This document shows positions 2,443-26,110 of a stretch of 26,110 bases of DNA, one piece after another; within the stretch, counting starts at the first letter, position 1; every line of letters starts with the position of its first letter. The DNA comes from an archaeon. Its GTDB lineage: Archaea; Iainarchaeota; Iainarchaeia; Iainarchaeales; Iainarchaeaceae. The stretch spans positions 1 through 26,110 of the forward strand of contig DATDXA010000014.1 of NCBI GenBank assembly GCA_035289485.1, given 5' to 3'. Under the pieces are notes generated by a model. It did not search any database. It saw only the letters and a program-made list of their open reading frames with translations, and was not told the origin of the DNA. A program made the position numbers and the translations under genes.

Positions 2443-2814
2443 CTAATTTAGCCATGGTTTTGCAGTGCCTTCGCGAACTAGCCTTACTTTCCTGGCCTTT
2501 TCTTCTGTTTTCATCATATTAATTTGCTTGGTTAATGAGCCAAGCATAGTTCTGATTTCTTTTAATCCCTCAACTTCTCCAAATCCCATTCTTTCCCTTA
2601 ATGCAAATTCTTTGGCCAACTGTTTCCACTCATTTTTTATCTCCACTAACTTTTTGATATCCATCTTTTCCGGATAGCGGTACATTAGCGTCAACCTTGA
2701 AACCATTTCACGGGAGATTGATGGCTTATGTTCTGCAGCGGCCCTCACAGTTGCAAGCCTGCGTTCCATTGCCATTTTCACAAGCCGTTTGTCACTAAAT
2801 ATGCCTTTTCTCAT
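2443..2814 (-). CDS. Hypothetical basic, coiled-coil-like protein
   Basis: 123-aa ORF whose ATG overlaps the TGA of the upstream metallopeptidase gene (ATGA overlap at 2811-2814). Confidence 0.6.
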   Translation of the reverse strand: MRKGIFSDKRLVKMAMERRLATVRAAAEHKPSISREMVSRLTLMYRYPEKMDIKKLVEIKNEWKQLAKEFALRERMGFGEVEGLKEIRTMLGSLTKQINMMKTEEKARKVRLVREGTAKPWLN

Positions 2815-3194
2815 TTTACAAGCACCTGCATATTTGCATATCTCTCAAGTTCGGCCTTCACATTCTGCGAGCACACATGGTCATGGTGCCGAAAGCCACC
2901 TCCAAAAGTGCGCGGGATGTGCATGAGCTCATGGATTATTGTTTCGAGCTGCTCTTTTTGCGGCTGCCTGTCAAACTTTTCAGTGATCAGTTCAATCACA
3001 TAAAAGCTCTTTTTGTGCCCCATTCCAAGCATCATCACTTTTCCGATGCAGTGAATGCGCGCAATTGTGCGCCTCGTTTTCGAGCCCCAGCTGCGAACAA
3101 CCGTGAGCCGATCTGGCATTACCCACTTATAACCGAGTGTTTTTGCAATTTCGTGCGATTTTGCTGTCCAATCAGGGTCAAATGCGTATTTCAC
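2811..3194 (-). CDS. Putative zinc metallopeptidase (archaeal COG4900-like, HExxH)
   Basis: RSWGSKTRRTIARIH, YVIELITEKFD and IIHELMHIPRTFGGGFRHH motifs. A GTG start at 3194 (VKYAFDP) avoids overlap with the divergent nth. Confidence 0.8.
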   Translation of the reverse strand: MKYAFDPDWTAKSHEIAKTLGYKWVMPDRLTVVRSWGSKTRRTIARIHCIGKVMMLGMGHKKSFYVIELITEKFDRQPQKEQLETIIHELMHIPRTFGGGFRHHDHVCSQNVKAELERYANMQVLVK

Positions 3195-3247
3195 GCAATG
3201 AATAGTGCTGTTTACAATAAAATCCTTTTCCCTGCAAAGTGGTACTG

Positions 3248-3877
3248 ATGCAAAAGCTTTCAGCAAAACAGAAAATGGCAATAAAACAGCTCATGGAACT
3301 GCACGCAAAAAGCTCGAAAATGAGGCTTGCCGCAGAGGGTTGGGGCGCGGATTGGAAAACGCTCATCACAACAATGATGTCAGCGCAGTCGCGTGACGAG
3401 ACAACAATCCCAATCGCAGCGCAGCTTTTTGAAAAATATTCAAATTTGCAAAGCCTCTCGCGCGCAAAATTTCAGGATGTGCTTGAAATTTTCAAAAGCC
3501 TCAACTACAACCGCAGCAAGGCAAGGCATGTGATTGCGTGCGCAAAAATGCTTGCGGAAAACCACGGCGGCGAGGTTCCCCACGATTTTGAAAAGCTTAT
3601 TGCGCTTCCGGGGGTTGGCAGGAAAACCGCAAATGTATTCCTCTCAGAGGCAGGGCATGATGCAATTGGAATTGATACTCACGCGGCATATATTTCCCAA
3701 AAACTTGGCTGGACAAAAAACAAGCGCTCCGCGCCGCACAAAATTGAAGAGGACTTAAAGGGGCTTTTCCCCAAAAAATACTGGAAAAATGTGAATCCCG
3801 TGCTTGTACGCTTTGGGAAGACGCACACGAGCAGAAAGAAAAAGGACGCCATTCTAGAGAAGATAAAACGCGGTTAA
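3248..3877 (+). CDS. nth: Endonuclease III (HhH-GPD DNA glycosylase/AP lyase) lacking the C-terminal 4Fe-4S motif
   Basis: LITTMMSAQSRD, HhH motif LPGVGRKTAN (catalytic Lys) and IDTH (catalytic Asp). No Cys cluster at the C-terminus. Confidence 0.9.
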   Translation: MQKLSAKQKMAIKQLMELHAKSSKMRLAAEGWGADWKTLITTMMSAQSRDETTIPIAAQLFEKYSNLQSLSRAKFQDVLEIFKSLNYNRSKARHVIACAKMLAENHGGEVPHDFEKLIALPGVGRKTANVFLSEAGHDAIGIDTHAAYISQKLGWTKNKRSAPHKIEEDLKGLFPKKYWKNVNPVLVRFGKTHTSRKKKDAILEKIKRG

Positions 3878-18446: not shown

Positions 18447-19184
18447 TCAATAAGTGTTTTCTTTCCGGGGAAACTTCCCCTTCCGCACATCTTTTGCATA
18501 TTTTTTCAGCGCCGCAACCGCATCCTTTTTCAGGTTCGCATATTTCTTCAAAAATTGCGGCTTAAAATTCTCATCCGCATTCAGCCCCAAAATATCGTGA
18601 AACACCAGAACCTGCCCGTCAACATATCTTCCGGCGCCGATTCCAATCACAGGAATTTTGAGTTCTTCTGCGATTTTCTTCGCGATTTTTTCAGGCACCA
18701 ATTCCAAAACAAGCCACCTGCACCCGGCACGCTCAAGGTTTTGCGCTGCGAGCAGCAATTTTTGCGCTTCGCGCTCTTCACGCCCGCGCACTTTCGGCTT
18801 TCTGTCCGTTTGTGGCAAATACCCAAGATGCCCCATCACTTTGATGCGGCTGCGCGCGAGCTTTTGCACAATTGAAATTTTCTCTCCCTCAAATTTCACT
18901 GCGTCCGCTCCCGCACGCAGGAATTTTTTTGCATTCTTGAGCGCAATTGCAGGAGTTGAGAATGATTTGTATGGCATGTCCGCAACAACAAGCGCATTAG
19001 TTTTTGCGCGCGCAACAGATTTCACGTGCACAAGCATCTCTTCCATTCCGATTCCGCGCGTGCTCTTCATGCCGTGCACAACATTTGCGGCGCTGTCGCC
19101 CACAAGGATGATGTCAACTCCGGCATCATCCGCGATGCGCGCGGATGGGAAGTCGTATGCGGTTAGCATTACTATTTTTTTCAC
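18447..19184 (-). CDS. panB: 3-methyl-2-oxobutanoate hydroxymethyltransferase
   Basis: MLTAYD, ILVGDS, VADMP, AVKFEG, GHLG..PQ, LVLE and IGIGAG..VDGQVLV.HD motifs; GTG start overlaps the upstream stop (GTGA). Confidence 0.96.
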   Translation of the reverse strand: MKKIVMLTAYDFPSARIADDAGVDIILVGDSAANVVHGMKSTRGIGMEEMLVHVKSVARAKTNALVVADMPYKSFSTPAIALKNAKKFLRAGADAVKFEGEKISIVQKLARSRIKVMGHLGYLPQTDRKPKVRGREEREAQKLLLAAQNLERAGCRWLVLELVPEKIAKKIAEELKIPVIGIGAGRYVDGQVLVFHDILGLNADENFKPQFLKKYANLKKDAVAALKKYAKDVRKGKFPRKENTY

Positions 19185-19831
19185 GGCCTATTCACCACAC
19201 TCAAACTGGATTTCATCAGTTGAATCCCGCCAGACCACCGCATGCTAACGGATGCAAATGCGGAAGTTACAAGGTGCAAAACCAGTTCATCTTCGGGGAG
19301 ATTTCTAGCCGGCATGACCGCGCGAAATCCAATTTTGGCACTGTCGCCATACCTGCTTTTTGAAAGCAGTTCAAGTTTTTTCGTGCACGCTTTTGATGCC
19401 TCCGAAAGCTCAATAGCCCGATTTTCCATATACTGGATTTTTTTGGCGGCCAGCGGATCGGATAATAGCACACCGCCCAAGCCAAGAAAACCTTTTTTCT
19501 TGAACACTTTGTTTAGCAGTTTCATATACCCGCGCTCAGGAAGAATTGCCATGCGTACGCTCTCATTTATCGCTTGTTGTATTGCGGGAGTTTTTGAGTA
19601 AATATCAATTGCGTTTACATTTTGCATGTAAGGATGCGTCTCAAGTAGTCGTGCGCAGAATCTTTCCATCCCATCAGGGGTCAAAATTCGTTTTGAAAGC
19701 GCTTCCGTAGTTGGCACTTTCATCGGGCGCCTAATGCCGCCCCTTGGCCTTTGCGAATACACAACAGTGCGCCCTTTGCGAAAGCTTTTGGAAGTTCCGC
19801 CCCCTCTTGGCATAGTGCGTGGAGTAACCAT
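19181..19831 (-). CDS. Hypothetical protein with an Arg-rich N-terminus, translationally coupled to panB
   Basis: ATG 19831 lies 25 nt from a minus-strand TATTTAAG; its stop overlaps the panB start. Confidence 0.65.
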   Translation of the reverse strand: MVTPRTMPRGGGTSKSFRKGRTVVYSQRPRGGIRRPMKVPTTEALSKRILTPDGMERFCARLLETHPYMQNVNAIDIYSKTPAIQQAINESVRMAILPERGYMKLLNKVFKKKGFLGLGGVLLSDPLAAKKIQYMENRAIELSEASKACTKKLELLSKSRYGDSAKIGFRAVMPARNLPEDELVLHLVTSAFASVSMRWSGGIQLMKSSLSVVNRP

Positions 19832-19896
19832 AATTAGTAAATTGCCCGAACCAATACTTAAATAATCCTTTTTCATGCCCATTTGTAGGTGCAATA

Positions 19897-20814
19897 ATGG
19901 AGAAAACAGAGCTTATCTGGATGAATGGCAAGATGGTGGATTGGGAAAAGGCCCAGATACACATCCTCACGCACACTTTGCACTACGGCACAGGCATTTT
20001 CGAAGGAATTAGATGTTATAACACTTCGAGGGGCCCCGCGATTTTCCGCCTCAAAGACCACATAAAAAGGCTCATGGATTCTGCGCACATAATGCAGATG
20101 AAAACTCAGTACAGGCATGCGGATTATGAAAAGGCGTGCAAGGATATTGTTTCAAAGAACAAATTGAAGGAGTGCTACATCCGGCCTTTGATTTATTTTG
20201 GCTATGGAAAAATGGGCCTTGCAACGAATGGAGTGATTGTTGATTCAGCGGTTGCTGCATGGCCATGGGGTTCCTACCTTGGAGAAGAGGGGATAAAGAA
20301 CGGGATACGCGTGAAGATTTCCTCATACGCGCGCCACCATGTGAACGCGATGATGTCAAAAGCCAAAACTGCTGGAAATTATGTGAACAGCACAATGGCG
20401 AAAATGGAGGCGCTCAATTCAGGATATGAGGAGGCGATAATGCTTGATGGGCACGGCTATGTTGCGGAAGCCACTGGAGAAAATATTTTCATTGTGCGCG
20501 AGGGCGAACTAATAACCCCGCCGACCACGAATGCTTTGGAGGGAATCACGCGCAAATCTATAATCCAGATTGCAAAGGACAGCGGCATCAAGGTGCGCGA
20601 AGAGCTTTTCACAAAAGACCAGCTCTACATTTCAGATGAGTGCTTCCTTACAGGGACTGCGGCAGAAGTTACTCCAATCCGAGAAGTTGACAACCGCCAA
20701 ATAGGGACTGGAAAACCGGGGCCAATTACAAAGAAACTGCAGGCCAAGTACTTTGCTGTGATTCATGGAAAGGTGGGCAAGTACAAGAAGTGGCTTGATT
20801 ATGTGCATAAGTGA
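19897..20814 (+). CDS. ilvE: Branched-chain amino acid aminotransferase (PLP fold type IV)
   Basis: [29 protein letters not shown] (PLP Lys), [14 protein letters not shown] and [12 protein letters not shown] motifs. Confidence 0.97.
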
Positions 20815-20845
20815 GTTGCACTAATCACAAGGCAGAATCCAAAAG

Positions 20846-20873
20846 TTCGGCTTTCGCCGAAACCTATTTAAAA
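20846..20873 (+). promoter_or_regulatory. Hairpin after ilvE, overlapping the BRE/TATA promoter of the leuA leader
   Basis: TTCGGC-TTTC-GCCGAA hairpin (20846-20861); CGAAA BRE-like element, then TATTTAAAA (20865-20873) about 25 nt upstream of ATG 20895. Confidence 0.6.
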
Positions 20874-20894
20874 TCCTATAAACATAATCTAAGC

Positions 20895-20960
20895 ATGATT
20901 TCAGGCAATTCAAGCGCATTGGCAGTTGCACTGCTTCTTGTCCTTGGGCTGCCAGCATAA
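20895..20960 (+). CDS. Putative leu/ilv leader peptide MISGNSSALAVALLLVLGLPA
   Basis: 21 codons containing 6 Leu, 2 Val and 1 Ile, with a CTG-CTT-CTT-GTC-CTT run. It sits at a leaderless-start distance from the TATA box, upstream of leuA-ilvB-ilvN. Confidence 0.7.
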   Translation: MISGNSSALAVALLLVLGLPA

Positions 20961-21145
20961 GCACTCCGCCAAATTTTGCGGCTTCTGGAGTGCGAAACAA
21001 AAAGCTTCAGAAGTCCTTCTATCGGAGGGCAATTTAGGGGAAAACTGAAGGGATAAAATGGCAACGAAGCGCGTTCCGAGTTGCGATTCGGAAGCACGCG
21101 GACTTTGGTGCCTGCGGCACCAAGAGGCATGAAAGGCGATTTGAA
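20961..21145 (+). promoter_or_regulatory. Structured attenuator-like 5' leader of leuA
   Basis: Competing helices 20961-67/20987-93, 20980-91/21004-15 and 21005-10/21045-50; further hairpins at 21074-21093 and 21105-21123; AAGGCGA RBS-like site at 21133-21139. Confidence 0.6.
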
Positions 21146-22696
21146 ATGGCAAAAAAGCGTGTAATAAAGATTTTCGACACAACCCTGCGCGACGGCGAGC
21201 AGAGCCCCGGAGCGACGCTTACGCACAACGAAAAAATTTTAATAGCGCAGCAGCTTGAGAGGCTCAATGTTGACATCATTGAGGCGGGCTTTCCGGTTGC
21301 GAGCAATGATGATTTCACTGCGGTTAAGGAAATTGCGCAGAAAGTGCGCAAGCCAACTATCTGCGCCCTTGCTCGCTGCAAAAAAGACGACATAGACCGT
21401 GCCGCCGCCGCAATCGAGCCCGCGCGCAGGGGACGGATTCATGTTTTCCTTGCAACATCTCCTATTCACATGAAATACAAGCTGCAGATGACCCCCTCAC
21501 AGGTGATAGCGCAGGCGGGAGAGTGGGTAGCGTATGCAAAGCAGTTCACAACTGATGTTGAGTTTTCTCCAGAAGACGCCGGAAGAAGCGAACCTAAGTT
21601 TCTTCACAAAGTGCTTGCAAAAGTGATTGATGCGGGGGCAACAACCCTTAATATTCCGGATACGGTTGGGTACACGCAGCCGCACGAATTTGGGTCCCTG
21701 ATAAAAGGAATTATTGAACACACGCCCAATTACACCCCTGCTGTAACAATTTCCGCGCACTGCCATGATGATTTGGGGCTTGCGGTGGCAAACAGCCTTG
21801 CCGCAGTTGCAAATGGCGCAGGGCAGGTTGAAGGAACAATAAATGGAATCGGCGAGCGCGCGGGGAACGCATCGCTTGAGGAGGTTGTGATGAATCTTCA
21901 TGCGCGCGAGAAGTTTTTCAATGCGCGAACGCGCATAAGGCTTGCGCAGATTTACAACACGAGCAGGATGGTTTCAAATTTCACATCAATTCCTGTGCAG
22001 CCCAATAAGGCGATTGTTGGAAAGAATGCGTTCGCACACGAGGCCGGGATTCACCAGCACGGAATTCTCGCGAATAGAAAAGTCTATGAGATAATGAACC
22101 CAAAAACAATTGGAAAAGAAACCGAGCTTGTGATTGGAAAGCACTCGGGGAAAGCGGCGGTTGCGGACTTTTTGAAGGCGAAAGGGTTTGCGCCAAGTTT
22201 TGATGAGCTCGCGGAAATCACCTCAAAAATCAAGGAGCTTGCGGACAAGAAAAAGAAGGTTTTCAGCGAGGACATCCTCGCAATTGCGCGAAGAGTAACT
22301 AAATCCACGGCTGAAGAAATGGCGATTGTTAAGCTTGATGATTTGCAGATAACAACCGGAAACAAGCTAAAGCCCGTGGCGGTTGTAAAACTTATAGTGC
22401 ATGGAGTAGAAGTTACGGGAACTTCTACTGGAGTTGGGCCGATTGATGCGGTTTCAAAGGCAATCCAGCAGGCGCTTGGAAATCAATTTGTTCTAAGCGA
22501 TTACAGCCTGCGGACAAACACGGGCGGCACCGATGCGCTTGCGGATGTTTCGATTTCAATTACAAGCAAAAACGGGCAGCAGTTTTCGGGCGAAGCGCTA
22601 AATGAGGACATCACAATGGCTTCTGCCGAGGCGCTTCTAAAATGCATTAATAAATTAATGGAAGAGGAATATAGGAAAGGAGTGGGATCAAAATAA
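21146..22696 (+). CDS. leuA: 2-isopropylmalate synthase (DRE-TIM metallolyase with C-terminal regulatory domain)
   Basis: [62 protein letters not shown] and GVGPIDA motifs. Citramalate synthase activity cannot be excluded from sequence alone. Confidence 0.92.
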
Positions 22697-24384
22697 AGGG
22701 TGCTCGGGCTTTTTTGGAGGCGCTTAAGCGCAACGGTGTTCGCCACATGTTTGGGATACCCGGAGGAGTCGTAATCCCGCTTTATGATGAAATTTATCAT
22801 GAAAAGCACTTCAAGCACATACTCGTGCGCCACGAGCAGGGCGGCGCGCATATGGCCGAGGGGTATGCAAAAGCATCAGGAACCGTGGGCACTTGCCTTG
22901 GAACATCTGGGCCTGGCGCCACAAATCTTGTAACTGGAATTGCCGATGCGTTCATGGATTCAATTCCAATTGTTGCAATCGGAGGGCAGGTAACAACTTC
23001 CCTTATTGGAAAGGATGCTTTTCAGGAAGCGGACCTTATGGGAATCACAACGCCCATTACAAAGCACAATTTCCAGATTACCGACCCCAATGAAATTGAT
23101 ACAATTGTTGATTCGGCCTACCACATAGCGGCAACTAATAGGCCTGGGCCAGTTTATGTCGAGATTCCAAAAGATGTGCAGCAAAAGGAAGTGACTGCGC
23201 CAAAGGAAATAAAGCTCAAAGGATACAAGGTGCTCAGCGGTTTTGACAAGGAAGCGGCAAATGAAGCATGCAAGATGCTTCTTGGGGCGCAGCGGCCAGT
23301 GATTTTGGTCGGCGGAGGGGCGGTATATGCGGATTGCGCAAATGAGCTGCGCGTTCTCGCTGAAACCTGCATGATAATGGTTGCAAGCACTCTGCATGGA
23401 AAGGGAATTTTTGATGAGAGGCACCCGCTCTCGCTTGGAATGACCGGAATGCACGGCCAGCCGCCTGCGGTTTATGCGATACAGCGCTGCGATGTGCTCT
23501 TTACAATTGGGATACGCTTTGATGACCGTGTCACCGGTAGGCTTGATGGATTCGCGCCCGAAGCGAAAGTGATTCACATTGAAATTGATGCGAGCGAAAT
23601 TCACAAGAACCGCAAAACAGAGCTCGGGATTTTGGGGAATGCAAAAGAAGTGCTCACCTACATGGCGGAAACCGTAAAAAAGATGCAGTGGAAGAGCAAA
23701 GAGTGGAATGAAAAGCTGCATGCAATGCAGCGCGAATACGCCGAGGACATAAATATTGACGCGTCCCCGATTGACCCGCGCAGATTGATGTTTGAGCTTG
23801 GGAAAGTTTTCACCGAGGATACGATTGTTACAACAGGAGTTGGTGAGCACCAGATGGATGTTGCGCACTTCATAAAATTTTCCAAGCCGCGCAAGTTCAT
23901 AACTTCAGGCGGGCTTGGCACAATGGGTTTTGGAATACCTTCCGCAATCGGGGCGAAGGTTGCAATGCCAAATAACCCCGTGTTCAATGTGGATGGAGAT
24001 GGGAGCTTTGCAATGACGGTGCAGGAGCTTGCAACCGCGAAAGTGAACAACATCAAGGTTGTGAATGTGATTATGAACAATGCTTATTTGGGCATGGTGC
24101 GCGCGTGGAACGACATGTTCTATGAGGGCAGGCGCTCGCAGGTCTGGCTTGGCAAGATTCCTGATTTCCAAAAACTTGCCGAGGCTTACGGGCTTTTGGG
24201 GATTAGCGTTGAGAGGCCCTCTGAGATTGCGGATGCGCTGCAACTTGCAATGAAAAATGAGGAATCGAGCGTTCTTAATGTGCATGTGAACAACGAGGCG
24301 ATAGTGCTGCCTATTGTTCCGGCTGGGGCGTCAAATAGTGAGATGAAGGGCGCGCGGATACCTAAGGATTATTTCACGAAATGA
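22693..24384 (+). CDS. ilvB: Acetolactate synthase large subunit (start probably ATA 22693; the track start is TTG 22714)
   Basis: FGIPGG, RHEQGGAHMAEGYA, TSGPGATN, FQEAD, RFDDRVTG, SGGLGTMGFG and GDGSF...NN ThDP motif. Homology appears to extend upstream to (I)[10 protein letters not shown]. Confidence 0.96.
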   Translation: MKGARAFLEALKRNGVRHMFGIPGGVVIPLYDEIYHEKHFKHILVRHEQGGAHMAEGYAKASGTVGTCLGTSGPGATNLVTGIADAFMDSIPIVAIGGQVTTSLIGKDAFQEADLMGITTPITKHNFQITDPNEIDTIVDSAYHIAATNRPGPVYVEIPKDVQQKEVTAPKEIKLKGYKVLSGFDKEAANEACKMLLGAQRPVILVGGGAVYADCANELRVLAETCMIMVASTLHGKGIFDERHPLSLGMTGMHGQPPAVYAIQRCDVLFTIGIRFDDRVTGRLDGFAPEAKVIHIEIDASEIHKNRKTELGILGNAKEVLTYMAETVKKMQWKSKEWNEKLHAMQREYAEDINIDASPIDPRRLMFELGKVFTEDTIVTTGVGEHQMDVAHFIKFSKPRKFITSGGLGTMGFGIPSAIGAKVAMPNNPVFNVDGDGSFAMTVQELATAKVNNIKVVNVIMNNAYLGMVRAWNDMFYEGRRSQVWLGKIPDFQKLAEAYGLLGISVERPSEIADALQLAMKNEESSVLNVHVNNEAIVLPIVPAGASNSEMKGARIPKDYFTK

Positions 24385-24452
24385 GAGTTTGTTGAATTGA
24401 AAAGCGGAAAATGAAAATTGAATTGAAAAATGATGGAACTTGGTGTGATTTT

Positions 24453-24911
24453 GTGGAAAAATTCTTTCTAAGGCTGATTGTTGAGCAAAGAAAGGGCGTG
24501 ATGGCGCGCATTGCAACCCTTCTTGCGCGCAAGGGTTACATCATAGGCTCGATTTGCGTTGGAAAGCATATCGAAGAGGGCGAGGCAAGCATTGTACTTA
24601 CGCTGCGCGGTGAAGAGGCCGAGGTCAAGAACGCAAAGGATTTGCTTGGAAAACTAATCCATGTGATAAGCATTGAAATGTATCATGAGAGCGATGCTGT
24701 GGAAAGGGAACTGTGCCTTCTAAAGGTTGAAAAGGGCGAGGACTTGAAGGCGAAACTTTCAGGGTTTGATTTTAAGGTTGTAAAAGAGGGCAAGGATTTT
24801 GCGGTCGTGGAAATAATTGATTATCCTGCAAGAATTGAGGAACTTGTGGCGCTTGCAAGGAAGAATTTCAAGGTTCTGGACATTTCGCGTTCCGGAGCGA
24901 ATGCGATTTGA
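24453..24911 (+). CDS. ilvN: Acetolactate synthase small (regulatory ACT) subunit, divergent
   Basis: GVMARIATLLARKGY.I.S, KLIHVI, VERELCLLKV and ISRSG motifs. GTG 24453 follows a GGTGTGA RBS (alternative ATG at 24411). Confidence 0.85.
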   Translation: MEKFFLRLIVEQRKGVMARIATLLARKGYIIGSICVGKHIEEGEASIVLTLRGEEAEVKNAKDLLGKLIHVISIEMYHESDAVERELCLLKVEKGEDLKAKLSGFDFKVVKEGKDFAVVEIIDYPARIEELVALARKNFKVLDISRSGANAI

Positions 24912-24914
24912 AGT

Positions 24915-25505
24915 TCACCTATAATCGTAAGGCAGATAAAATACCCACCTGCCTTTTGATGGCCTTTGAGGATTTGTGTTTCCGGTTGTCATGATATCAA
25001 GAAATTGCGGAGGAGGGCCACCGTGAGCGCTATTTGAAAGCAGGCCATTTGAATCAATCGACAAAAAATTTCTTTCCATCTGTTGCTCTGCCAACAGAAA
25101 ATTTTCACGAACTGATTGGGGGAGTTCATATATCTCGATGGGCTTTATTCTTGACATTACAAGATATTTTCCGATTCTGCCATGAACTTTTATGGACTTC
25201 AAAATATATCGACCAGATTTTAATGATCCGGCTCTTACTGCCCGTTGATGCAAGAGAAAATCCCGCCTAAGCCGTTTATAGTAAAAACCATGGTCTGCTT
25301 GCCGTTGAGTATCTTTTATCGCCAATTCAAGTGGGCCAAAACGCAATAGCCTCACCCTTCCGGATACATCCAAAACAGGGAGACTTCCAAAAAATTTTGC
25401 CGAAAGCCTTGAATTAAGGAAGTTTATGGCAGTCTCAGGAGTGAATTTTACGGGCTTAATCGCTGCACTACGAACTGATTTGCGCCTCAAAAGCTTTCTT
25501 TGCAT
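24915..25505 (-). CDS. Hypothetical protein, basic N-terminus, possible degenerate kinase-like fold
   Basis: Antisense ORF between ilvN and ilvC; leaderless ATG 25505 about 25 nt from TTAAATA; LAIK, YLVMSRI and HGG...DIM segments. Confidence 0.6.
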   Translation of the reverse strand: MQRKLLRRKSVRSAAIKPVKFTPETAINFLNSRLSAKFFGSLPVLDVSGRVRLLRFGPLELAIKDTQRQADHGFYYKRLRRDFLLHQRAVRAGSLKSGRYILKSIKVHGRIGKYLVMSRIKPIEIYELPQSVRENFLLAEQQMERNFLSIDSNGLLSNSAHGGPPPQFLDIMTTGNTNPQRPSKGRWVFYLPYDYR

Positions 25506-25577
25506 ATTCAATCCATCCAAAGGTACTTATTTAATTCTTATTAAGTTGATTTATTCTATACTATTTGGGGGTTTTTG

Positions 25578-26110
25578 ATGAATTTAATGCGGGACAAGGA
25601 CGCGGATTTGAAGGATTTGGAAGGAAAAATAATAGCCGTTCTGGGCTACGGCGCGCAGTGAGCTGCGCAGGCCATGTGCATGAAGGATTCTGGCCTAAAT
25701 GTGATTATCGGCCTTCGCAATGGAAGCGAGAGCGTCAAAAAGGCGAAAGATTATGGTTTTGAAGTTTTAGAAACTGCGGAAGCTGCAAAGCGCGCGGACA
25801 TAATTCACGTCCTTCTCCCAGATGAAAAGCAGGGTGAAGTGTATGAGAGCGAAATAAAGCCGCACCTAACAAAAGGCAAGACACTTTCATTTTCGCACGG
25901 GTTCAATATTTGTTTTGGCTTCATTAAGCCACCTGCAGATGTTGATGTGCTGATGGTTGCGCCAAAAGCCCCAGGAACCGAGGAGCTAAAGCAGTTCGTT
26001 GCCGGCTTTGGAGTTCCTGCGCTCATTGCAATAAAGCAGAACCATTCGGGAAACGCGAAAAAAACCGCGCTTGCAATGGCAAAGGCGTGCGGCTTTACGC
26101 GCGCGGGAGT
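25578..26110 (+). pseudogene. ilvC: Ketol-acid reductoisomerase with an in-frame TGA at codon 28 (pseudogene, sequencing error or readthrough); runs off the window
   Basis: Manual translation: [46 protein letters not shown]...ADIIHVLLPDE...FSHGFNI...VDVLMVAPKAPG...FGVPALIA. TGA is at 25659-25661. Confidence 0.9.

Follow-up and report, generated by a model that had tools for sequence, protein, structure and literature searches.

A probable ribosome-read leader-peptide attenuator in front of leuA-ilvB-ilvN in a DPANN-type archaeon

How is the synthesis of leucine and valine controlled in a DPANN-type archaeon, and does the DNA in front of leuA take part in this control? The question is raised by contig DATDXA010000014.1 of assembly GCA_035289485.1, which belongs to the Iainarchaeaceae and was analysed over 26,110 nucleotides (the window). 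A first-pass annotation, made from the letters of the window alone, had placed a leader-peptide attenuator between ilvE and leuA, i.e. a short upstream open reading frame (uORF) with leucine and valine codons, followed by overlapping RNA helices. The element described here is probably a ribosome-read leader-peptide attenuator of leuA-ilvB-ilvN. That it is real, conserved and specific is well supported, as is its sensing part, by comparative evidence; the stalling, the ON fold, the switch and the output step we infer.

The leader uORF (MISGNSSALAVALLLVLGLPA) comprises 21 codons and a TAA stop codon and is located at 20895–20960 of the forward strand (TAA at 20958–20960). Codons 9 to 19 (20919..20951, forward strand) encode the run LAVALLLVLGL and are the proposed sensing codons. 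The biosynthetic operon is hence directly preceded by a short uORF in which codons for the amino acids made by this pathway form a run. Behind the stop codon two helices are found, named P1 and P2 in the following, which correspond to helices 1:2 and 2:3 of the first-pass annotation. The TATA box, the ATG at 20895, the 21-codon frame, the TAA and the helices listed in that annotation were all recovered at the same positions.

Upstream of the uORF, a sequence CGAAAC resembling a transcription factor B recognition element (BRE) and the TATA box TATTTAAAA (together 20858..20874, forward strand; TATA box at 20866–20874) form the putative promoter of the transcript comprising the leader and leuA-ilvB-ilvN. 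CGAAAC-TATTTAAA is retained in all 13 family sequences. Throughout the genome, TATA-like hexamers peak at −32 to −28 before the ATG of long open reading frames (ORFs), and the TATTTA of the leader starts at −29. Since this spacing equals that of the leaderless genes of the genome, the uORF is probably leaderless, with transcription starting at or next to the A of its ATG; the evidence for a leaderless first cistron is promoter geometry only. The base preceding the ATG is a C in 11 of 13 family members. In two other families (f21 and f26) the TATA box is located approximately 20 nt further upstream, giving a short 5′ untranslated region, and a GTG or GGTG similar to a Shine-Dalgarno (SD) sequence is found a few nucleotides before the ATG. 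A sigma-70-type site and a terminator behind the leader were both absent in a promoter and terminator scan.

Relatives of the leader were sought in related genomes, in the DNA that precedes leuA orthologues. The same layout was found in 12 genomes of the same family and in one of a neighbouring family: BRE and TATA box, an ATG about 25 nt later, a frame of 21 to 25 codons ending in a run such as LVLVLLA, the stop codon and, directly behind it, the GC-rich hairpin P1. The loop of P1 contains a block close to GGCTTCTG or GACTTCTG, and CAGAAGTC followed by NTT is found 13 to 18 nt 3′ of P1. A covariance model of the leader (R1) detects one copy per genome. Among the 23 genomes of the family it gave 13 strong matches (E-value of 6e-13 or better), all before leuA. 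The element is present in all 12 family genomes that have leuA, as well as in G018, where leuA is cut by the contig end, and in none of the ten family genomes lacking leuA, save for one false match inside a coding region. Eight true members in four further families were identified in 151 sampled genomes of the order; three weak matches in the latter set lay inside coding regions and were discarded. In total, the element is found in 21 distinct genomes of five families, and only before leuA or ilvB. Family f24 has it before ilvB instead of leuA, as verified for G064 and judged by eye for G078; leuA of G064 has no leader, its ilvB has one.

The phylum comprises 215 small genomes, apparently all of one order, and this leuA is present in 50 of them. 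A fixed test was applied to 50 regions, namely those of all leuA genomes except one fragment, plus that of G018. It demanded at least five Leu, Val or Ile with at least three Leu among the last eight residues; in addition, a hairpin with an energy of −8 kcal/mol or better had to begin no more than 4 nt from the stop codon. Of the 50 leuA upstream regions, 43 passed this test, which was defined after the data had been seen. When applied to 705 upstream regions of the genome studied here, six passed, one of which is the real element (background 5 of 704). Of the seven failures, three (G040, G191 and G180) do have a Leu-run uORF, and their hairpin misses the thresholds narrowly. A pattern scan of metagenomes returned three true matches, the leaders of G008, G006 and G015, and two chance matches. 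One metagenome contig (L135) carries a leader identical to that of G008 through the P2 3′ arm and about 25 further bases, after which the sequences diverge; the start of leuA was not seen in the 230 bases read behind the match, and the contig suggests a rearranged variant.

The hairpin P1 is formed by a 5′ arm (GCACTCC, 20961..20967, forward strand; segment 1 of the first-pass annotation), which begins with the first base after the stop codon, and a 3′ arm (GGAGTGC, 20987..20993, forward strand; segment 2), the first bases of which can also extend P2. In 21 of 21 leaders P1 starts −1 to +1 nt from the stop codon, with a length of 7 to 12 bp. In the model-fitted alignment all seven pairs change on both sides, and none of 500 shuffled alignments reached the covariation score. 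One of the pairs alternates between U-A (eight sequences) and C-G (seven sequences). RNAalifold selected P1 unaided, with compensatory changes in all five predicted pairs. The fold of the single sequence is only modestly unusual (z = −1.8 for 281 nt and −2.0 for 65 nt), and it is the relatives that carry the weight. Helix 1:2 is solid, being kept in 21 genomes with covariation in all seven pairs, and the comparative check named in the first-pass annotation, a conserved uORF rich in branched-chain amino acids plus a covarying helix in relatives, turned out positive on both counts.

The coding character of the uORF is seen when the 21 leaders are aligned at the stop codon. For the last 14 codons, mean entropy is lowest at the second codon position (0.73), against 1.32 at the first and 1.51 at the third. 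From codon −10 to −5, the second position is almost always T, the first and third positions vary. This triplet pattern points to selection for Leu, Val and Ile codons and not for an RNA sequence. Together with the promoter spacing and the SD-like motifs of f21 and f26, it suggests that the uORF is of the translated type. The last 14 residues of the 21 leaders contain 135 Leu, 72 Val, 35 Ala, 11 Ile, one Met and neither Phe nor Trp (294 residues in total). This composition bears on the very improbable explanation that the uORF encodes a small hydrophobic membrane peptide acting in trans, which merely shares the promoter of the operon. Such a peptide would account for the hydrophobic C-terminal half and for the N-terminus, which is loosely conserved as M-x-F/S-G/S-N. 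The hydrophobic stretch is only 12 to 14 residues long, however, which is not enough to cross a membrane, and it is too uniform for a membrane helix; a single one of the 294 residues is Phe, Met or Trp, and Ile is rare in the leader tails although it is as frequent as Val in the proteome. Moreover, the peptide occurs only before leuA or ilvB, and its sequence differs between families while the layout of run, stop codon and hairpin is kept. A screen of the leaderless uORFs of this genome for runs of any amino acid left only this one standing out. A T-box-like reading, with CTTCTG as Leu "specifier" codons and TGGN behind them, was dropped in view of what is known about the ends of tRNA-Leu.

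The codon content of the run was compared with the genes downstream, using the last 12 residues of the leaders. Before leuA followed by ilvB (families f1, f6, f21, f26 and f28; 26 leaders), 167 Leu and 74 Val were counted. Where leuA occurs without ilvB, either alone or with leuC, leuB or ilvE (f11 and f16; 17 leaders), Val almost vanishes (123 Leu, 6 Val). With ilvB as the first gene (f24; two leaders) 6 Leu and 10 Val were found. The order leuA-ilvB was checked in ten loci of f1, f6, f21, f26 and f28 and is kept in all ten; the other arrangements were checked in 13 loci. The counts suggest that the ratio of Leu to Val tracks the content of the operon, the families being too few for a statistical proof. 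They speak to an improbable alternative as well, according to which the uORF is translated without sensing anything and serves as a constitutive device for loading ribosomes on a leaderless 5′ end, stabilising the mRNA or insulating the operon, the hairpin then having a structural role or blocking decay. Such a device would fit the lack of a terminator-like U-tract at this site and a ribosome-binding site of leuA that is not sequestered by the leader. Yet it would need no run of Leu and Val codons, gives no reason why this run should lose Val in the absence of ilvB or become rich in Val before ilvB, and would be expected at other operons, whereas the genome has only one.

The second helix, P2, is less clear-cut. 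Helix 2:3 in its full extent comprises 12 bp here (20980–91 with 21004–15), with a core of 8 bp (20980–87 with 21008–15). The 5′ arm of the core (GGCTTCTG, 20980..20987, forward strand) lies inside the loop of P1 and abuts the P1 3′ arm; the 3′ arm (CAGAAGTC, 21008..21015, forward strand) is the most conserved block of the leader, with invariant columns. Loop L1 (CCAAATTTTGC, 20968..20979, forward strand) is A-rich and then T-rich, and most family members have an A run followed by a T run, the length of the latter not being conserved. Loop L3 (20994..21007, forward strand) is 13 to 18 nt long in relatives and has a conserved run of at least four A just before the P2 3′ arm. The 3′ arm is followed by NTT and then by A in 11 of 13 relatives (CTTC here). 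It is kept in f1, f6, f24 and f26 and partly in f21. In the alignment 85% of the P2 cells are paired, and in five of the eight pairs only one partner varies (C-G to U-G, A-U to G-U). The best partner of the P2 3′ arm is the region of the P2 5′ arm, far better than the uORF, in 12 of 15 sequences. A pairing of the 3′ arm with the Leu codons of the uORF was rejected, since it was no better than with shuffled codons and fell at varying positions.

The first-pass annotation had treated P1 and P2 as mutually exclusive. Only the outer part of P2 reaches into the P1 3′ arm, by 0 to 5 bp in relatives. As nested folds the two are near iso-energetic here (P1 −15.4 kcal/mol, the 20980–21015 helix −17.2 kcal/mol), and when the first 10 nt after the stop codon were masked, a helix between the P2 arms was predicted in approximately 12 of 15 sequences. 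These results are compatible with mutual exclusion; with so small an overlap, a pseudoknot is equally possible. Topology and loop lengths fit an H-type pseudoknot without a spacer between the stems, of which P1 covaries and P2 does not. P1 and the P2 core could thus coexist as an H-type pseudoknot and could equally be competing folds.

A rather unlikely explanation builds on the pseudoknot. The sensor would be the same, with P1 and P2 forming a protective ON fold when the ribosome stalls. This fold would hide the only pyrimidine-rich stretch of the leader (L1 and the P2 5′ arm) from FttA/aCPSF1 or a nuclease, and a ribosome at the stop codon would prevent the pseudoknot and leave the stretch single-stranded for the factor. 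The position of the P2 5′ arm in the P1 loop, abutting the P1 3′ arm with zero spacer, agrees with this idea, as do the loops: L1 has 10 to 13 nt with a T run, L3 13 to 18 nt with an A run near its 3′ end, and such a make-up is typical of triple-helix pseudoknots. The narrow length range of L3 stands out against the free length of the spacer behind it. Furthermore, FttA is encoded in the genome and, according to a short review (PMC13681488), favours U-rich nascent RNA. The lack of covariation in P2 argues against the pseudoknot as ON fold, as does f21, which has no P2 5′ arm while an AGAAGTC block is partly retained, and the action of FttA at this site is an assumption.

The preferred reading, attenuation by the position of the ribosome with P1 and P2 as the switch, would proceed as follows. 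Transcription would start at or next to the ATG of the uORF, which would be translated as a leaderless message. With plentiful amino acids, the first ribosome would reach the UAA and keep the P1 5′ arm inside its mRNA channel. The freed region of the P1 3′ arm could then pair with the conserved 8-mer downstream to form P2 (12 bp, slightly more stable than P1), the putative OFF state. If Leu- or Val-tRNA is scarce, the ribosome would stall in the run, its A site two or more codons upstream of the stop codon and clear of P1. P1 would fold as soon as it is made and either block the extension of P2 or lock P2 into the pseudoknot, the putative ON state. The mRNA channel geometry of bacterial ribosomes, assumed here, lets a stalled ribosome miss P1 and one at the stop codon reach it. 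As the position of the ribosome directly changes only the folding of P1, correct feedback needs folded P1 to be the ON state. The core of the earlier leader-peptide proposal is supported by the conserved uORF, the covarying P1 and the codon content that tracks the genes; its detailed scheme of four segments holds only in part, with helix 1:2 solid, 2:3 a conserved core without compensatory change and 3:4 specific to this genome.

The output would most likely be premature termination or cleavage of the transcript before leuA by the archaeal RNA polymerase with FttA/aCPSF1. A factor-dependent output is proposed because neither helix has a U-tract here: in agreement with the first-pass annotation, no run of at least four T follows helix 1:2 or the 20980–21015 helix. 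An FttA/aCPSF1 homologue was found in the genome (G000, contig C31, 49166–52375), with two matching parts in a single open frame of 1098 aa. Between the element and leuA lies a variable, purine-rich spacer (21016..21145, forward strand), which is unique to this genome and is not counted in the conserved element; no other copies of it were found in the genome. In the family the spacer to leuA measures 72 to 185 nt and is unalignable, length and sequence being different in every relative. Such freedom in length speaks for termination or cleavage rather than translational occlusion. A duplex between the leader run and the leuA ribosome-binding site was no better than with shuffled codons (one of 43 below 0.05, median 0.42), and hiding of this site by the leader is accordingly not supported, the predicted leuA starts being approximate in some loci. 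Helix 3:4 (21005–10 with 21045–50), the last segment pair of the first-pass annotation, appears in one minimum free energy fold of this sequence; together with the hairpin that it encloses it had to be given up, since it lies in the spacer and is not conserved.

Several side observations concern the spacer. The stretch 21036–21085 resembles 21122–21172 in that it repeats the start region of leuA (AAATGGCAA..AAGCG.GT, approximately 19 of 22 bases). The copied start opens a 24-codon ORF at 21058–21132 (MATKRV..., compared to MAKKRV... of LeuA). Apparently, the 5′ end of leuA has undergone a short tandem duplication. Hairpins are found at approximately 21069–21100 and at 21107–21121 within the duplicated region. 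Three ORFs on the reverse strand (20876–21226, 20910–21182 and 21034–21393) were judged spurious, as they cross the non-conserved spacer.

A different arrangement is seen in sister families: the P1 5′ arm is paired with the final codons of the uORF in f21, f28 and part of f11. For the nine f21 sequences, 95% of the cells of this helix are paired, compared to 22–57% when the partner is slid; one sequence has two compensatory changes, and the counts were reached by 71 to 78 of 500 shuffles. The helix competes with P1 in eight of the nine. At least four T follow P1 in seven of nine f21 and in ten of 16 f11 sequences. By its sequence, this layout is a predicted pair of antiterminator and terminator with the right feedback logic. 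With a ribosome stalled early, the end of the uORF would remain available to capture the P1 5′ arm, giving read-through; a ribosome on the last codons would free the P1 5′ arm, so that the terminator hairpin could form. The window's family has neither the pairing of the uORF end with P1 nor the U-tract and must therefore work differently. With regard to f11, its leaders are almost pure Leu runs, often followed by five to nine T. The LeuA match in this family covers only residues 3–390 of 516, in open frames of approximately 385 to 425 aa, and the f11 enzymes seem to be without the C-terminal domain.

Besides the late definition of the fixed test, a number of points weigh against the preferred reading. 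The role of P1 here (ON) seems opposite to its apparent role in the sister families (terminator), so that rewiring would be required. The U-tract of an intrinsic terminator is absent after both P1 and P2 in this genome, and at least four T follow P1 in only three of 13 family members; a conserved U-tract terminator, absent in the remaining ten, was rejected for the window's family. None of the eight P2 pairs shows compensatory changes, several mismatches are uncompensated, and since P1 shares no more than one base with the P2 core, the two need not exclude each other. The link between codons and operon rests on few independent lineages, as the relatives share ancestry, and two genomes (G148 and G174) carry Val in the run before a leuA-leuB-leuC operon. 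Finally, the last three codons are conserved in the family at synonymous sites, unlike the preceding codons, and no convincing partner was found for them in the window's family, none at all within 30 nt. With the stop codon (20946–20962), most relatives read YTG CTA GCT TAA GC, this genome CTG CCA GCA TAA GC. In a partner search extended to 100 nt, the last codons often paired best with the region spanning the P2 5′ arm and the P1 3′ arm, and only four of 16 sequences beat their shuffles. In the relatives, the last three codons and the stop codon contain the palindromes GCTAGC and GCTTAAGC.

The synonymous conservation leads to a further, quite improbable explanation, in which the conserved RNA (P1, P2 and the CAGAAGTCNTTA block) is a site for a protein or small ligand and the overlap with the uORF is incidental or an aid to folding. 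The block CAGAAGTC-NTT, conserved beyond the needs of pairing and persisting in part in f21 without its partner, would be understandable on these grounds, and a similar suspicion is voiced by the authors who described the LEU element (PMC1262725). Three observations would be left unexplained by a pure protein or ligand site: the uORF varies in a triplet pattern, P1 keeps its contact with the stop codon in all 21 leaders, and the codons correlate with the operon. Nor was any Rfam family matched: cmscan of 20500–21500 at E-values up to 10 returned no family, Leu_leader included, and five unrelated hits at chance level.

How does the element compare with known systems? Enterobacterial leuL-leuABCD, ivbL-ilvBN and ilvL-ilvGMEDA each have a short uORF with codons of the pathway, helices that depend on the position of the ribosome, and a codon content of the leu or ilv type. 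They are closest in concept, sharing the uORF with its run before the operon, the helices right behind it and the codon content set by the operon. In contrast to them, the archaeal element has a BRE/TATA promoter and a predicted leaderless uORF, lacks the terminator composed of hairpin and U-tract as well as a match to Rfam Leu_leader, has a run that reaches two codons before the stop codon with the first helix directly at the stop, and would have to rely on the archaeal RNA polymerase and FttA for its output. If FttA is the effector, the best analogy is provided by the Rho-dependent leaders tnaC and mgtL/mgtA, where the position of the ribosome on the leader ORF decides on the access of the termination factor to the nascent RNA. 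FttA/aCPSF1 is a nuclease and Rho a helicase, however, and no loading site is defined here.

The LEU element of actinobacteria, described by Seliverstov et al. (2005; PMC1262725), comes closest in architecture. In front of leuA it combines a uORF containing a Leu run with a candidate pseudoknot or an alternative hairpin behind it, and pairing of the Leu codons with the leuA SD box closes the element. The likeness suggested in the first-pass annotation is confined to the architecture; the stem between run and SD box is absent here in the shuffle test (one of 43 below 0.05), the distance to leuA is variable, and no sequence similarity was found. With respect to leaderless sensing ORFs, the polycysteine small ORFs of mycobacteria come closest (Canestrari et al., bioRxiv 10.1101/834739). 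These attenuators consist of a leaderless sensory first cistron with a run of the pathway's amino acid, which acts by ribosome pausing without a classical terminator. They are bacterial, and the sequestration of the downstream ribosome-binding site, which a stalled ribosome disrupts there, was not found here, where the spacer measures 72–185 nt. The leader of ilvBNC in Corynebacterium and the ilvB-II uORF (PMC11857589 and PMC10272879), compared by description, are similar in that ilvB is preceded by a conserved uORF, that several hairpins occur and that the mechanism is debated; they differ in being bacterial and terminator-based.

The leuA gene itself is of the bacterial type, and a shared origin of gene and leader concept is therefore possible. 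Among bacterial leuA homologues of 48–55% identity, 24 of 63 loci have a Leu-run leader according to a loose filter (at least four Leu in eight residues). Leu-run uORFs such as ...RLLLLLP are located before leuA of Kistimonas, Motiliproteus, Neptunomonas, Microbulbifer and others. No sequence similarity was seen between the bacterial and the archaeal leuA leaders. The leader idea, or even the unit, may have come with the bacterial-type gene.

Leader-peptide attenuation is a textbook form of bacterial control and depends on a ribosome close behind the RNA polymerase. In full-text literature searches, which do not extend to subscription journals, no description of it was found for any archaeon; the control proposed here is of a known kind, in a domain of life for which no description was found. 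It is conceivable, if somewhat short of an even chance, that ribosome-mediated attenuation exists in Archaea as the standard control of leucine and valine synthesis across a DPANN phylum, with a bacterial-style antiterminator and U-tract terminator in some families and, in the window's family, a switch of hairpin or pseudoknot without U-tract that presumably acts via FttA. If true, coupling of transcription and translation in archaea would be tight enough for regulation, RNA hairpins could steer archaeal termination, and genome-reduced DPANN archaea, which keep few biosynthetic pathways, would still regulate leucine and valine synthesis. The element is defined to the base and phylum-wide, and it occurs in natural variants: with and without U-tract, with and without second helix, Leu-only, Leu/Val and Val-rich. 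These variants provide a concrete system in which to ask whether archaeal coupling serves regulation, whether RNA structure directs termination and whether FttA takes the role of Rho.

The gene calls for the locus agree with the gene order given in the first-pass annotation (ilvE, then leuA-ilvB-ilvN), all on the forward strand. The gene ilvE is located at 19897–20814. It is followed by leuA (21146–22696), encoding a 2-isopropylmalate synthase of the bacterial type (NF002086 with 698 bits and TIGR00973 with 655 bits, both above the cut-offs), with an SD-like AGGCGAT at 21134–21140. Downstream, each after a short gap, are ilvB (22714–24384) and ilvN (24411–24911); ilvC starts at 25674 on the same strand. 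The assembly (64 contigs, 1.16 Mb) has a completeness of 90%. The window is archaeal, as it encodes TFB (with TFIIB repeats and zinc ribbon), S8e, a Cgi121-type KEOPS subunit and a Hef-like helicase-nuclease. A scan of the window for tRNA and tmRNA genes gave none.

Two ORFs on the reverse strand flank the operon genes without a match in Pfam or NCBIfam, one of 237 aa (19181–19894) divergent from ilvE and one of 201 aa (24915–25520) between ilvN and ilvC. At 20846–20861, behind ilvE and ahead of the leader's BRE/TATA, the sequence TTCGGC-TTTC-GCCGAA makes up a perfect hairpin or palindrome. It is not kept in relatives and may serve as a signal for the 3′ end of ilvE or as a binding site for a protein. 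Further away, an ORF of 156 aa on the reverse strand (2811–3281), which adjoins a superoxide dismutase gene, matches PF18894, "putative phage metallopeptidase", with an E-value of 1e-11.

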